DNA of 64,000 nt, from NCBI GenBank assembly GCA_963711795.1, contig CAVQFD010000005.1, positions 580,271 through 644,270 on the forward strand, in the 5' to 3' direction. Source of the stretch: an uncultured Acidobacteriota bacterium. Lineage in GTDB: Bacteria; Acidobacteriota; Vicinamibacteria; Vicinamibacterales; CAVVIG01. This document shows, in pieces, positions 47,308 through 52,269 of this stretch. The notes beneath the pieces are model-generated. The model did no database searches. It was not told the DNA's origin and was given only the letters and a program-made list of their open reading frames with translations. A program made the translations under genes and the position numbers. The first letter of the stretch is position 1; each line of letters begins with the position of its first letter.

Positions 47308-47808
47308 CACTGGCGGCGGGGCCCCACCCCCGCCGCGAACTGACGCCGACGCGCTCGCCTCGGATTCGCTCGTCCTCGGCTCGGCGTGGCCGCAGGCGCT
47401 TTTTCATCCACTGGCGGCGGGGCCCCACCCCCGCCGCGAACTGACGCCGACGCGCTCGCCTCGGAGTCGCTCGTCCTCGGCTCGGCGTGGCCGCAGGCGC
47501 TTTTTCATCCACTGGCGGCGGGGCCCCACCCCCGCCGCGAACTGACGCCGACGCCTCGCCTCGGATTCGCTCGTCCTCGGCTCGGCGTGGCCGCAGGCGC
47601 TTTTTTCATCCACTGGCGGCGGGGCCCCACCCCCGCCGCGAACTGACGCCGACGCACTCGCCTCGGATTTGCTCGTCCTCGGCTCGGCGTGGCCGCAGGC
47701 GCTTTTTTCATCCACTGGCGGCGGGATCCCACCCCCGCCGCGAACTGACGCCGACGCACTCGCCTCGGATTTGCTCGTCCTCGGCTCGGCGTGGCCGCAG
47801 GCGCTTTC
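47308..47808. repeat. Tandem array, 5 copies of a 101-bp (101/101/101/102) unit with a 9-bp GC-stem hairpin
   Basis: The unit begins 'cactggcggcggggccccacccccgccgcgaactgacgccgacgc...ggctcggcgtggccgcaggcgcttttt(t)catc'. Copies start at 47308, 47409, 47510, 47611 and 47713. Copies 1-2 and copies 4-5 share private variants ('gcgctcgcctcgga(t/g)tcgc' versus 'gcactcgcctcggatttgc'). Confidence 0.95.
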
Positions 47809-49714: not shown

Positions 49715-49875
49715 GGAATTGGGTAACCGAGTAATTGGGTGATTGGGTAATCGGCGAATCGGGTAATTTGGAAATTGAATTGTCACAATTACCGAATCAA
49801 TTCCCAGATTCCCAAATGAATCAATCGTTCAATCGCGCAATTACCAAATTACCCAACTACTCAATTACCCAATTC
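49715..49875. terminator. Long imperfect hairpin built from AATTGGGT-type octamers (candidate terminator)
   Basis: The left arm is 'ggaattgggtaaccgagtaattgggtgattgggtaatcgg...'. The right arm is '...ccaaattacccaactactcaattacccaattc'. The centre is near 49784 ('aattgtcacaatt'). It starts 10 nt after the TAA at 49702-49704. Confidence 0.55.
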
Positions 49876-49920: not shown

Positions 49921-50346
49921 TTGCCTGTCGAGGCCGCCGATGCACCGCCGTCGATTACGTGCGGCCGCTGCGGCCAGTTGATACCGCTGAACGTGTCGGC
50001 GCCGGTACGGGCCGACCAGGCGGTCGACGCCTGTCCAGTGTGCTCGGGTGGAGACTTCTACACGCGGAAGGACTTCGATCCGAAGGTCGGCCTGGCATTC
50101 GTCGTGGCGGGCGCGGCCATCAGCGCCGTCTTCTACTGGTTCGCCATGGACCTCGTCGCATACTCGATCCTCGGAGCCGCGGCGCTCATCGATCTCGTCG
50201 TCTACGGACGGCTGAAGGACCTGACGGTCTGCTACCGCTGCCACACCGAATTCCGCGGCGCGTATCCGAGGACGGCGCCTGCCTTCGATCTCCATACGGC
50301 CGATGTGCTCGAGCAGGAGTACCAGAGGCGCATAGGGCGCAGGTGA
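49921..50346 (+). CDS. Zinc-ribbon membrane protein (hypothetical)
   Basis: 'CGRCGQ...CPVCSGGDF', then two hydrophobic helices ('VGLAFVVAGAAISAVFYWF', 'VAYSILGAAALIDLVVY'), then 'CYRCHTEF'. Confidence 0.5.
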   Translation: MPVEAADAPPSITCGRCGQLIPLNVSAPVRADQAVDACPVCSGGDFYTRKDFDPKVGLAFVVAGAAISAVFYWFAMDLVAYSILGAAALIDLVVYGRLKDLTVCYRCHTEFRGAYPRTAPAFDLHTADVLEQEYQRRIGRR

Positions 50347-50497
50347 ATCGGGTAATCGGGTGATTGGGTAATTGAGTAATCGGCGAATCGGGGAATTTGG
50401 TAATTGGGCGTTGTTGCAACGATTGCGACGATTGCGACGATTGCGACGATTTCGACGATTGCACTGATTGCGACGATTGCCGCGATTGAGACGATTG
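50347..50497. repeat. Left arm of a long inverted repeat: AATCGGGT-type octamers followed by CGACGATTG-type nonamers
   Basis: 'aatcgggt aatcgggt gattgggt aattgagt aatcggcg aatcgggg aatttggt aattgggc' is followed by 'caacgattg cgacgattg cgacgattg cgacgattt cgacgattg cactgattg cgacgattg ccgcgattg agacgattg'. It spans from 1 nt after the TGA at 50344-50346 to the stop of the four-helix-bundle gene. Confidence 0.9.
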
Positions 50498-50875
50498 CTA
50501 CGAGTCCGCTTGTCGGCGGCGGTTGCGGCGCGCGGTGCCGAGCGAGGCTGAGAAGATCGCCAGGATCTGACGCGCCTCGGCCCTCAGTAGTTGAAGGTCG
50601 GATGTGTCGGTCAGCCCGGATTCCGCAATCAGGTCGAGCCATGCGGCTGTTTCGTCCGCTTCCTCAGCAACCAGCCCAATCTTGGCCGTGAACTCGGCAT
50701 GCGACCTGGCGCGGCAGGCCGCGCGGTAGTTCATGTCGACCGAGGTGGCAGATTTTGCCAACTGTCGCTGGATCGTTGGCCCAGGCTCCGTTGAGGGCAA
50801 CCGCTGAATCAGCGCGATAATACCGAGCGCAAACCGCCGGACCCGCTGCTCGAGAAGTTCAGCCTGATCGCCCAT
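50498..50875 (-). CDS. Four-helix-bundle protein (23S rRNA intervening-sequence protein family)
   Basis: 'LEQRVRRFALGIIALIQRLPSTEPGPTIQRQLAKSATSVDMNYRAACRARSHAEFTAKIGLVAEEADETAAWLDLIAESGL' follows the family pattern (F...i..l...lP......i..Ql.rsatSi..N..Ea....S..eF..k...a..E..Et..Wl.l). The proposed start is ATG 50875. Confidence 0.75.
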   Translation of the reverse strand: MGDQAELLEQRVRRFALGIIALIQRLPSTEPGPTIQRQLAKSATSVDMNYRAACRARSHAEFTAKIGLVAEEADETAAWLDLIAESGLTDTSDLQLLRAEARQILAIFSASLGTARRNRRRQADS

Positions 50876-50943
50876 GGGGTTCTCGAGACTCCGTGCCACC
50901 ACCGAGCAATCACCAGGCCGTCGGTTTCAGGTTCTGAATCCTT

Positions 50944-51055
50944 CCAATCGCTCCAATCGTCGCAATCGATTCAATCGTCGCAATCGTTCCGATAGCAACT
51001 ACCCAATTACCCGATGGGCCGATTACCCAATCACCCAATTACGCGATTACCCAAT
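50944..51055. repeat. Right arm of the long inverted repeat (CAATCGTCG nonamers, then ACCCAATT octamers)
   Basis: 'ccaatcgct ccaatcgtcg caatcgatt caatcgtcg caatcgttc' is followed by 'ctacccaa ttacccga tgggccga ttacccaa tcacccaa ttacgcga ttacccaa tt'. Its reverse complement mirrors the architecture of 50347-50497. It abuts the restored moeA stop (51058..51056). Confidence 0.9.
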
Positions 51056-52269
51056 TCAGAAGAGCGTCACCGTGACCATCGCGCTCTCTTCCACCACGCT
51101 CTGAGTCAGAGGGAATCTCGATGTAGCCATCGGCCTGCGAGAGGCTCGTGATGTCGCCCGATGCCTTGAAGGCGGGATGCGCCACGCCGTCGCGTCACGC
51201 GCACGGTGTAGAACTGGTGCCGGCCGGCCTGGGAGACGATGCGCCGGCCGAGCGGGACGCGCGAGCGTGCGCGCGGGCGTAGATCGGCAGGCGCGCCGTG
51301 GCGCGCAGGAACGGCACGAGCAGGATGTAGGCGTTCGACAGGCATGAAGTCGGGTTGCCCGGCATGCCGAAAAACGGCGCGCCGTTGACCAGCGCGAAGC
51401 GCGTGGGCTTGCCGGGCTTGACGGCGATGCCGTGGAAGACAGCTCGACCCCGCTCGGCGATCAGGTCGACCATCAGATCGCGATCGCCGACCGAGCTTCC
51501 GCCCGAGAACACGATGATGTCCGCGTCGGCGCACGCATCGAGCGTGGCGTGCAGCGCGCGAGCGTGTCCTGGGCGGGCCGATGGGCCTCGGGGATGCCGC
51601 CGTGCGCGCGGACGACCGCGCGCGAGCGTGAAGCGGTTGACGTCGTAGATCTGGCCGGGCAGCGAGGGGCTGGCCGGGATCGATGACCTCGTTGCCCGTG
51701 GAGACGAGCGCGACGCGCGGCCGCGCGAACACGTCGACCTCGAGCGCTCCGACCGCCGCGACCGCTCCCAGGCGGCTCGCGTTCAGCGCCTGACCGGCGC
51801 GGACGACGAGATCGCCCGTCACGATGTCGGCTCCCTGCCGTCCGATGTTCTGCCCGGCCCTGGCCGTGGCCGCGATGTCCACGTGATGCTCGTCGACGCG
51901 TCGAGTCTCCTCGACCATCACCACGGCGTCGGCGCCGGCAGGAATCGGCGCGCCCGTGGCGATTTCGGCGCACGACCCTGACAGGACCGTGTAGCCCGAT
52001 GGCTGTCCCGTGAAGATCCGGTCGGCGATCCTGAGGCGCACGGGTGTGTCTGGTGCCGCCGCCGCCACGTCTGCCGCGATGACGGCGTAGCCGTCCATTG
52101 CCGATCGCGCAAACGGCGGCACGTCGACCGGCGAGGCCACGTCGGTTGCAGCCACTCGGCCGCCGGCGTCGGAGAGGACCACCCGTTCGGTTCGCGTGAT
52201 GGGGCGCAGGTGCTCGGTCAGGAGCAGGCGCGCTTCCTCGAGCGAGATCGTTGAAGCAAAAGGCCGCAT
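51056..52269 (-). pseudogene. moeA: Molybdopterin molybdotransferase MoeA, about six frameshifts as assembled
   Basis: The N-terminal 200 aa are intact ('PFARSAMDGYAV', 'IATGAPIPAGADAVVMVEE', 'GQNIGRQGADI', 'VALVSTGNEV'). After that the sensible sequence hops frames: 'PGQIYDVNRFTLAR', 'AVVRAHGGIPE', 'IIVFSGGSSVGDRDLM...GIAVKPGKPT...GMPGNPTSC', 'RHQFYTVRVT', 'DGVAHPAFKASGDITSLSQADGYIEIPSDSER' and 'VEESAMVTVTLF*'. The shifts are near 51662, 51615, 51560, 51285, 51197 and 51090. Confidence 0.75.

Follow-up and report, generated by a model that had tools for sequence, protein, structure and literature searches.

Proteins of the PF05635 type were first found encoded inside the intervening sequences (IVSs) of rRNA, and rRNA IVSs were once proposed to be mobile. 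IVSs of the 23S rRNA that carry an ORF are described in Coxiella burnetii, Leptospira, Brucella, and Xanthomonas (PMC4990558). The Coxiella burnetii 23S IVS, located at helix 45, holds an S23p ORF, has a 28-bp stem and variable tandem heptamers, and is cut in this stem by RNase III (PMC4990558). A second group of described elements consists of tandem repeats: the G-rich intergenic heptamers GGGAATC in Xanthomonas and GGGGAYT in Nostoc (Rehm et al. 2015, PMC4692102), heptanucleotide elements in Geobacter metallireducens (PMC2700814), and TAACTGA repeats in Beggiatoaceae (PMC4679880). In X. campestris, 70 heptamer pairs lie in inverted orientation (PMC4692102), and the supplement of the same paper lists, without comment in the paper, a GGGAATC array that overlaps the start of XCC0516, the family member crystallised as 2GSC.

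The function of the S23p/IVS protein and the overrepresentation of tandem heptamers beside bacterial gene ends have both been puzzles for decades. The locus analysed here, part of a 64,000-nt window (the whole stretch of DNA under analysis), unites them in one conserved structure with directly testable features: a strict arm polarity, subfamily-specific repeat flavours, a complementary pair of arrays newly grown in a single genus, an orthologous hairpin that lacks the gene at this junction, and an in-place inversion of the loop. Our literature search turned up no publication connecting inverted repeat arrays with PF05635 genes that lie outside rRNA.

The hairpin between the Zn-ribbon gene and moeA

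The first-pass annotation had placed a 23S-rRNA-IVS-type four-helix-bundle (4HB) gene between mirrored octamer and nonamer arrays, outside any rRNA and wedged between the 3′ ends of the convergent Zn-ribbon gene and moeA. This layout was borne out by our analysis. Tandem Repeats Finder (TRF) recovered the nested order octamer, nonamer, gene, nonamer′, octamer′, and the arms start at both stop codons. The features of this cassette and its surroundings are as follows:

49716–49875: neighbouring gene-less hairpin between the 2,4-diaminopentanoate dehydrogenase and Zn-ribbon genes, unit AATTGGGT, as in the cassette (TRF)
49921–50346, plus strand: conserved Zn-ribbon/2-TM gene, stop TGA at 50344–50346
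50346–50408: left outer octamer array, Zn-ribbon side, period 8, 7.9 copies, AATCGGGT (TRF)
50414–50503: left inner nonamer array, period 9, 10 copies, TTGCGACGA (unit CGACGATTG; TRF)
50498–50875, minus strand: 4HB gene, 125 amino acids, S23p/23S-rRNA-IVS-protein/Avd-like family (PF05635 and TIGR02436 profiles)
50876–50936, minus strand: leader of ~60 nt between the inner arm and the ATG
50937–50990 (TRF 50943–50990): right inner nonamer array, moeA side, period 9, ~5 copies, CAATCGTCG
50996–51058 (TRF 50996–51056): right outer octamer array, moeA side, period 8, 7.6 copies, CAATTACC (unit ACCCAATT)

The first base of the left repeat array is also the last base of the TGA stop of the Zn-ribbon gene, and the left nonamer array runs up to, and into, the 4HB stop codon. 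The right nonamer array mirrors the left one, and the right octamer array, the mirror of 50346–50408, terminates in the stop codon of moeA (TCA on the plus strand, 51056–51058). GGG runs recur every 8 nt in the octamer arm and are not found in the nonamers.

An inverted-repeat search paired the outer arms 50344–50406 and 50996–51058 over 63 nt with 84% complementarity, and the inner arms 50418–50469 and 50937–50988 over 52 nt with 81% complementarity (51–52 nt and 81–82% for the inner inverted repeats I2/I3). RNAfold gave −341.3 kcal/mol for the minus strand of 50340–51060 as compared to −268 ± 8 for shuffled sequences (z = −8.67, with 0 of 20 shuffles equally stable) and predicted 126 arm-to-arm base pairs. 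Thus, the arms are complementary as had been claimed; however, the proposed stem length of ~150 bp did not hold. The arms are unequal (left ~158 nt with 10 nonamers, right ~122 nt with 5 nonamers), and therefore the paired stem comes to ~115–126 bp. The flank inverted-repeat score of the 4HB gene is 56, the second highest among the 4,027 genes of the genome (background median 9.5; 99th percentile 15). The neighbouring gene-less hairpin, which is also present in the related genome G001, reaches −70.2 kcal/mol in RNAfold (z = −8.5). An Rfam search of the locus matched no family and returned only subthreshold miRNA-precursor matches to this neighbouring hairpin, and no sigma-70 consensus promoter was found in the 50876–50936 leader.

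The cassette and the 23S IVSs have in common an S23p/PF05635 ORF in the loop, a stem made of terminal inverted repeats, tandem repeats within that stem (in the IVSs, heptamers of varying copy number), and vertical inheritance. In contrast to the IVSs, the cassette lies outside rRNA, where it is bounded by the stop codons of a convergent pair of protein genes, and its compound stem of 8-mers and 9-mers has roughly four times the length. Its 4HB gene is clearly under purifying selection, while the Coxiella ORF is decaying (PMC4990558). RNase III cleavage is known for the Coxiella stem; for the cassette it would be expected by analogy.

The arrays also match the repeats of the type described by Rehm et al., whose tandem 7–8-nt units lie in intergenic DNA next to or across stop codons, with the G-rich sequence on the sense strand, and often occur as inverted pairs. 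The cassette likewise has tandem 7–9-nt intergenic units that begin at a stop codon, a G-rich sense strand, and inverted pairing, and its unit GGGTAATC is one base longer than GGGAATC. The difference is that the cassette arrays enclose a PF05635 gene, whereas the published accounts (PMC4692102, PMC2700814, and PMC4679880) link the repeats to no protein family.

The four-helix-bundle protein

The family assignment made by the first-pass annotation proved correct. The product of the gene matched PF05635 with 45.5 bits (cutoff 33.8) and TIGR02436 with 68 bits (cutoff 24), and profile comparison to PDB 2RLD gave E = 3.4e-24. In the AlphaFold2 model (pLDDT 94.7), helices 2–23, 32–54, 59–86, and 92–124 form a predicted up-down four-helix bundle. 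The best Foldseek matches of this model were 2RLD and 2GSC, which occupied rank 1–8 of the chains with TM scores of 0.74–0.79 (query-normalised) or 0.81–0.88 (target-normalised). Both solved relatives contain five chains, while the model of the 4HB protein represents only the monomer. The pI values of the 4HB paralogues range from 8 to 10.2, and a search with the PADLOC defence models gave no match. Purifying selection acts on the gene, as judged from a dN/dS of 0.085–0.26 with dS of at least 1.0.

In diversity-generating retroelements (DGRs), the accessory protein Avd is a pentamer that works with structured RNA. We considered whether the 4HB gene might encode such an Avd protein, as both are small and basic with, on the predicted model, the same four-helix-bundle fold (TM 0.69–0.80 to the Avd structures 4DWL and 8UB7), and among Pfam families PF05635 comes closest to Avd (PMC10053308). 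However, sequence identity to Avd is only 11–12%, no template or variable repeats (TR/VR) were found, and the neighbours are housekeeping genes. Furthermore, the PF00078 reverse transcriptase profile had no match in the whole assembly, from which 18% of the genome is missing. The DGR reading is thus effectively refuted, and we assign it a negligible probability.

Inheritance of the cassette and inversion of its loop

To follow the junction through evolution, the source genome (G000) was compared with its relatives, of which G001 belongs to the same genus (g1). The Zn-ribbon gene is kept in 20 of 31 relatives, and the cassette together with its gene is syntenic in at least five other genomes and absent from most other relatives. 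The gene order is dehydrogenase, Zn-ribbon gene, 4HB, moeA in G001 and moeA, 4HB, Zn-ribbon gene in L055 and L056; in G006 the synteny is split over two contigs, and in G015 it is seen on the Zn-ribbon side only. The outer octamer array (50346–50408) shows unit-by-unit orthology with G001, L055, and L056. The nonamer arrays are confined to G000 and G001 and absent from the L055 and L056 orthologues. These comparisons indicate that the cassette at the Zn-ribbon/moeA junction is old and vertically inherited, and that the nonamer arrays were added on both sides in genus g1 only. The arms of G000 and G001 are ~82% identical as compared to a neutral expectation of ~44% at that dS (about 1), so they are conserved above neutral expectation. 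At the same junction, G012 carries a gene-less hairpin with the same unit as the cassette.

The first-pass annotation had also suggested that the cassette might be mobile. According to this view, gene and arms together would transpose or home as a cassette into the ends of genes, with the 4HB protein as mobility factor. Such an element would account for the patchy occurrence at the junction (present in G000, G001, G006, G015, L055, and L056, absent from most other relatives), the co-inheritance of gene and arms, the homology confined to the cassette between unrelated flanks in L111/L126 and L074/L077, and the breaks in synteny found right at the cassette edges of C4:520k and C8:253k. At the locus itself, however, the claim of mobility was not supported. 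The orthologue has stayed at one site over dS > 1 with dN/dS of 0.09–0.26, no transposase was found there, and no direct target duplication is visible, the ends running straight into the TGA and TCA stops. The 4HB protein is a plain four-helix bundle without a catalytic domain. Moreover, the eight cassettes of the genome have different arms and divergent proteins, with no near-identical copies among them, and 49 of 54 syntenic cassette pairs are collinear, the other five being in-place flips (two events). What does move is the loop, as in the inversion between G000 and G001 described below. With a four-helix bundle as the only ORF, no target-site duplication, and no near-identical copies, an IS/MITE-like transposable element was rejected, and we regard an active mobile element as quite improbable.

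Between G000 and G001, two species of one genus, the loop is inverted: when the loci are compared, the flanks align reversed and the centre forward, and the ~60-nt leader flips together with the 4HB gene in G001. A second, independent flip was found in Terriglobia (L096 versus L112 and L133). Judged from these alignments, arm–arm recombination has flipped the loop in the sister species. As both strands of the element read alike, the transcript has the order G-arm, leader, gene, C-arm before and after the flip. A similar situation is presented by the plastid flip-flop inversion, in which a segment between long inverted repeats occurs in both orientations among related genomes while the flanks remain unchanged. 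In contrast, the cassette has arms of ~120 bp that are tandem arrays of short units and a loop of ~440 bp, and its flip is seen between species only, not within a population.

Among the arm pairs compared between G000 and G001, 2 changed compensatorily, 14 were broken by single changes, and 88 remained unchanged, which is weak evidence either way. In G001, the nonamers within each arm have been homogenised to the arm's own variant. Given the few compensatory changes and the homogenisation within arms, the complementarity may be maintained at the DNA level, through conversion or recombination between the arms, and not through selection acting on RNA. Mismatches of the G·U type gave no strand signal (218 in the gene-sense RNA versus 221 in the antisense), and transversions were as common as transitions among the arm mismatches.

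This symmetric mismatch pattern without an RNA wobble signature, the homogenisation within each arm, and the two independent inversions would all be expected if the arms formed a DNA switch that lets the loop invert often and so switches expression of the gene between read-through from one neighbour and from the other (phase variation), with RNA pairing being irrelevant. Flipping, however, looks rare, as only 5 of the 54 syntenic pairs are flipped over long divergence. In addition, flipping makes little difference in an element that is symmetric, no invertase gene was found among the neighbouring ORFs, and the gene-less hairpins have the same polarity as the cassettes. We thus give little credence to a switch.

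Taken with the synteny, these data favour, on balance, a resident and vertically inherited "IVS-like" hairpin cassette, that is, a functional 4HB gene in the loop of a compound 8-nt/9-nt inverted-array hairpin; we consider this reading somewhat probable. By analogy with the rRNA elements, we infer transcription of the cassette, pairing of its RNA, and cleavage in the following manner. The hairpin would fill the shared 3′ region of the two convergent genes, and the 4HB gene would be reached by read-through from its co-oriented neighbour, here moeA. Within the RNA, the two arms would form a duplex of ~115–126 bp, which RNase III may cut as it does the Coxiella and Leptospira 23S IVS stems; the rnc gene is present in the genome. 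Such a cut would free the 4HB mRNA and would terminate the converging transcripts or insulate them. The 4HB protein, which is basic and whose solved relatives are pentameric, may bind nucleic acid, perhaps that of the arrays.

Association of the 4HB family with polar inverted arrays

The first-pass annotation had pointed to other 4HB genes in the genome as a test of the cassette, and these showed that the stem-and-loop geometry is a trait of the family. All eight 4HB genes of the genome are flanked by inverted 7–9-nt arrays, although the repeat unit differs from locus to locus. The flank inverted-repeat scores of the eight paralogues range from 17 to 56, which puts each of them in the top 0.7%, beyond the 99th percentile, when set against the 4,019 other genes, and seven of the eight loci fold with 45–126 arm-to-arm pairs. 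In six of the eight, the stop codon of the upstream neighbour abuts the 5′ arm. The same layout was found at about 24 of 28 4HB loci in relatives and at 68 of 80 loci from about ten phyla (above the 95th percentile of controls). Thus, the architecture is statistically linked to the 4HB family both in this genome and across phyla. The arms are also polar, with the G/T-rich arm lying 5′ on both strands: 63 cassettes are G-arm-first as compared to 4 with the opposite order, and gene-less hairpins show the same polarity (95 versus 11). No 4HB gene was found inside rRNA in this lineage. The assembly itself contains no 23S gene; those of eight relatives are 2,978–3,009 nt long and therefore have no IVS insert.

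Arms and proteins vary together. More similar proteins tend to have more similar arms (Mantel r = 0.13, p = 5e-4), and within one order the arms of subfamily 2 have a GC content of 0.50 and 7.4 ATTG motifs per 100 nt, while those of subfamily 1 have 0.68 and 0 (p = 4e-4 for GC and p = 4e-6 for ATTG). The number of arrays is related to the family as well. In seven sampled genomes, array density rises with 4HB copy number (Spearman rho ~0.68), with the exception of G028, which has six 4HB copies and 7 arrays per 200 kb, and genomes with 0–1 4HB genes have background array counts only. Relative to G000, G001 has two extra 4HB copies; the region of one is missing from G000, and that of the other has a different array there and broken synteny.

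The genome contains ~1,031 period-7/8 arrays and 108 gene-less hairpins; the arrays are more frequent in convergent than in divergent intergenic regions (25% versus 10%), and 318 of 759 lie within 10 nt of a stop codon. The inverted arrays might therefore be general 3′-end hairpins (terminator-like, mRNA-stabilising, or G-quadruplex-forming), into whose loops 4HB genes merely drift or in which they are tolerated. The gene-less hairpin of G012 agrees with such incidental residence, as do the inverted heptamer pairs published for Xanthomonas without a named gene (PMC4692102). Other gene families are occasionally found in such loops too, namely, a secreted protein at C4:145793, a SEC-C-motif protein, and, at C3:331333, a probable GxxExxY/PD-(D/E)XK-type protein, named from its sequence rather than by a profile scan. 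Incidental residence does not explain, however, why all eight 4HB genes exceed the genome's 99th percentile, why the association persists over about ten phyla of differing GC content, why arm flavour tracks protein subfamily inside the same genomes and arm similarity tracks protein identity, or why genomes with 0–1 4HB genes have only background array counts. For these reasons, we find it rather unlikely and retain the resident cassette as the preferred reading.

Whether cassettes are the source of the stop-abutting arrays, as had been proposed, receives an answer that is correlative only: the relation of density to copy number and the match between arm flavour and subfamily speak for it, while the 108 gene-less hairpins and the G012 junction speak against it. 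A broader possibility, which we put forward tentatively, is that PF05635 4HB proteins and polar inverted 7–9-nt arrays together constitute one two-part genetic system across bacteria. Each basic pentamer would, as cognate factor, bind or maintain the repeat hairpins of its own flavour. Gene and arms would pass on together as one symmetric unit, able to flip in place and to gain inner arrays on both sides, and gene loss would leave the many "empty" stop-abutting hairpins. The 23S rRNA IVSs would then be copies that reside in rRNA. If true, such a system would explain what S23p proteins do and why heptamer repeats are in excess in bacterial genomes, as has long been noted.

The differing units of the eight cassettes are no evidence for a rule of one paralogue per repeat family. 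All eight units belong to abundant gene-less families, and according to a rough estimate from the family counts, eight abundance-weighted random draws would be all different in about a third of cases.

Architecture of the four-helix-bundle cassette

In the 4.86-Mb, 66% GC assembly of the source genome (G000; 9 contigs, the window being C5:580271-644270), about 710 nt lie between the stop codons of a conserved Zn-ribbon gene and moeA. This space is filled by a cassette, in which a four-helix-bundle (4HB) gene and its leader occupy the loop of a hairpin with arms of mirrored short-repeat arrays.

Parts of the cassette and flanking genes (window positions)
49921-50346, + strand: conserved Zn-ribbon/2-TM gene, converging on moeA
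50346-50408, Zn-ribbon side: outer octamer array, unit AATCGGGT
50414-50503, Zn-ribbon side: inner nonamer array, unit CGACGATTG
50498-50875, - strand: 4HB gene, 125 codons
Between the 4HB gene and the moeA-side nonamer array: leader, 60 nt
50937-50990, moeA side: mirror nonamer array
50996-51058, moeA side: mirror octamer array
About 51056-52269, - strand: moeA, converging on the Zn-ribbon gene

The first-pass annotation had placed the gene in the loop of an octamer-plus-nonamer inverted repeat. This was confirmed directly: complementarity between the arms reaches 84% in a 63-nt stretch and 81% in one of 52 nt, and the gene scored over the curated cut-offs for both PF05635 and TIGR02436 in a profile search. 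The computed RNA fold bore out the predicted stem: it joins the arms by 126 base pairs and reaches -341 kcal/mol as compared to -268 ± 8 in shuffled sequences (z = -8.7). Independent assemblies show the same cassette structure, which rules out an assembly artefact. The predicted protein structure is a four-helix bundle (pLDDT 94.7), with BT_0352 (2RLD) and Xcc0516 (2GSC) as its nearest solved structures and the DGR protein Avd next. Purifying selection acts on the gene, whose dN/dS is 0.085 between G000 and its sister species G001 and up to 0.26 in pairs further apart (dS ≥ 1).

We rejected an rRNA intervening sequence (IVS), as the assembly contains no 23S gene and 23S is uninterrupted in eight relatives, and a DGR Avd, as G000 has no reverse transcriptase. 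A recognisable transposon was likewise rejected for want of an enzyme, target duplication, or identical copies, which also leaves the earlier suggestion of mobility unsupported at the window locus.

The assembled moeA (window 51039-52269, - strand) carries at least two frameshifts, one about 45 nt ahead of its stop codon. The shifted frame enters the first octamers and reads LLNWVIA*, while the frame of orthologues closes with VTLF* at the TGA where the array begins. The frameshifts are probably long-read indel errors; possibly, moeA is a pseudogene.

Inverted arrays across the gene family

All 8 PF05635 genes of G000 have inverted arrays of 7-9-nt units on both sides, and the unit is unlike at each locus (GGGAACG, GGGCAGG, CTTCGGG, GGTTCAA, TGCTGATTG, AATTTACA, GGGATTCA, and the octamer/nonamer pair of the window). 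Flank inverted-repeat scores of the 8 genes were 17-56, as compared to a median of 9.5 and a 99th percentile of 15 for 4,019 other genes. At seven loci, the fold gave 45-126 pairs across the gene, while the remaining one formed a separate hairpin on each side.

The window gene ranks second in G000 by this score. The sole higher value belongs to a 180-aa ORF (C2:765828-766370) between two inverted copies of a ~100-nt sequence. These copies are related to a 101-nt unit found in 4.9 tandem copies (98% identity) at window 47308-47807, upstream of a response-regulator gene; the repeat and its relatives look like a separate dispersed element.

PF05635 genes are present in 23 of 30 relatives of the same family or order, in 1-17 copies (24 of 31 genomes with G000 included), and arrays, again with locus-specific units, bracket ~24 of the 28 relatives' loci inspected. 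Scanning species-representative genomes yielded 80 loci with a 4HB gene, from Acidobacteriota, Verrucomicrobiota, Bacteroidota, Chloroflexota, Nitrospirota, Binatia, Kiritimatiellae, Ignavibacteria, and others. Among these closest relatives of the window gene's subfamily, and with a permissive alignment score, 68 (85%) exceeded the 95th percentile of the distal-flank control (median score 19.5 versus 9); heptamer/octamer arrays were discernible by eye. Thus, the inverted-array bracket is a trait of the gene family and is not peculiar to the window locus, which supports the proposed IVS-like cassette as an architecture.

Two MAGs labelled as different phyla, L080 (Spirochaetaceae) and L089 (Acidobacteria), have about 3 kb in common at 90% identity around the cassette, with identical TGATTTT arms. 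Such likeness across phyla suggests misbinning or mislabelling, or else a recent transfer.

The arms follow rules of polarity and repeat flavour. In 63 cassettes the arm rich in G/T precedes the other, and in 4 it follows (22 ambiguous); among gene-less hairpins of G000, it leads in 95 and trails in 11. Cassettes with more similar proteins also have more similar arms (Mantel r = 0.13, p = 5e-4); the 6-mer Jaccard index of the arms is 0.19 where the proteins share at least 70% identity and 0.02-0.04 for other pairs. Arm-similar pairs are mostly syntenic orthologues; L111/L126 and L074/L077 have only the cassette in common. In Vicinamibacterales, subfamily 2, which includes the window gene, has an arm GC of 0.50 and ATTG-rich units, as compared to 0.68 and no ATTG in subfamily 1 (p = 4e-4 and 4e-6).

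Genomes with 0-1 4HB genes carry 3-12 period-7/8 arrays per 200 kb, and those with 8-13 carry 26-39; a genome with 6 genes and 7 arrays is the exception. The suggestion that the cassette is the source of the arrays agrees with this trend, which is correlative only. The approximately 1,031 arrays of G000 occupy 25% of convergent, 13% of tandem, and 10% of divergent intergenic regions. Among the 759 beside a gene 3' end, 318 lie at most 10 nt from the stop codon, and these are mostly G-rich on the sense strand of the adjoining gene (281 versus 139). Plain hairpins number 108 with a loop below 100 nt and none with a loop of 300-400 nt.

A few other small genes also occur in array-hairpin loops of G000. 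One encodes a 160-aa, putative GxxExxY/PD-(D/E)XK-type protein (C3:331083-331945; named from sequence) with a flank score of 39.5. Because it lies between inverted ACACGGAG octamer arrays, a second small-gene family uses a similar bracket.

History of the junction and inversion of the loop

The Zn-ribbon gene and moeA are convergent throughout the order, and their junction exists in several states.

States of the Zn-ribbon/moeA junction
Cassette: G000; G001 (same genus, 4HB protein 83% identical)
Cassette: L055 and L056 (4HB protein 74% and 73% identical)
Cassette: G006 (unit GGTGATG, divided between two contigs)
Cassette: G015 (L144, G015:C9; outer-arm unit AATCGGGG/AATTGGG as in G000, frameshifted 4HB gene)
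Gene-less hairpin, G000's unit AATTGGGT/AATTTGGT, loop about 70 nt: G012
Gene-less hairpin, unit other than G000's: G002
Degenerate or different arrays: G003, G004
No arrays, stop codons near each other: G007, G011, G013, G018, G027, G029
Other genes in between: G009, G014, G021, G023, G028

Across four genomes, the outer octamers align one unit to one unit; their identity is about 82% for G000 versus G001, a pair in which synonymous sites are saturated. The nonamers occur in G000 and G001 only, on both sides of the 4HB gene, which indicates that a new complementary array pair was gained inside older arms within this genus. We can only guess at fold-back copying or arm-to-arm conversion as the route.

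The flanking genes and arms have the same placement in G001 as in G000, while the 4HB gene and its leader are reversed. In blastn, the flanks align in reverse and the central roughly 700 nt forward, and the 4HB ATG of G001 adjoins the Zn-ribbon-side arm. Since L055, L056, and G006 share the G000 orientation, the flip took place on the G001 lineage. All-against-all comparison of syntenic cassettes found 49 collinear and 5 inverted pairs, the latter representing two events: the G001 flip and another, independent of it, in Terriglobia (L096 versus L112 and L133). Because an inverted repeat is identical read from either strand, the flip preserves the order of G-rich arm, leader, gene, and C-rich arm. 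The flip is arm-to-arm recombination and not transposition. It is the first rearrangement documented here for these cassettes.

G000/G001 synteny is also interrupted precisely at the boundary of a 4HB cassette or array hairpin, at C4:520123 (versus L051) and C8:253000 (versus L049), which suggests that arrays may be rearrangement hot spots. The Zn-ribbon gene encodes two CxxC pairs and two predicted membrane helices and lacks a Pfam match; it is kept in 20 of 31 related genomes at 66-82% identity, every time convergent with moeA. The G015 loop holds an additional ORF of about 135 aa, family unassigned, beside the frameshifted 4HB gene.

Proposed expression, RNA pairing, and earlier reports of arrays

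At 6 of the 8 G000 loci, the gene upstream reads in the same direction and its stop codon directly adjoins the 5' arm, and no promoter motif was seen in the leader. Thus, the 4HB gene is probably transcribed by read-through, from moeA at the window locus. The arms of such a transcript would pair into a long RNA duplex, a natural substrate of RNase III, which is encoded in G000. In Coxiella 23S rRNA, the same gene family is excised by RNase III from a stem with tandem heptamers of variable number (PMC4990558); the window cassette resembles it in gene family and in having short tandem repeats in the stem but lies outside rRNA. By this analogy, RNase III might cut the arm duplex, a reading we hold tentatively. 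Three features speak against an RNA-only view: arm mismatches show no wobble bias, compensatory changes are few, and units are homogenised within each arm. They fit maintenance at the DNA level by arm-to-arm recombination equally well. Binding of the 4HB protein to its own repeats is conceivable but rather unlikely.

Our literature searches found no described link between the 4HB family and inverted repeat arrays. Of most interest are the flip of the loop, the hairpin without a gene at the orthologous junction, the gain of arrays on both sides of the gene within one genus, and the regularities of arm polarity and repeat flavour. For Xanthomonas and Nostoc, G-rich heptamers that are inverted and abut stop codons have been reported (PMC4692102), and heptanucleotide elements in Geobacter (PMC2700814) and Beggiatoaceae (PMC4679880). 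The protein family goes unnamed in all three papers, also where the supplement of PMC4692102 lists, as repeat no. 15 of X. campestris ATCC 33913 (622956-622983), a GGGAATC array over the start codon of XCC0516, the PF05635 protein crystallised as 2GSC.
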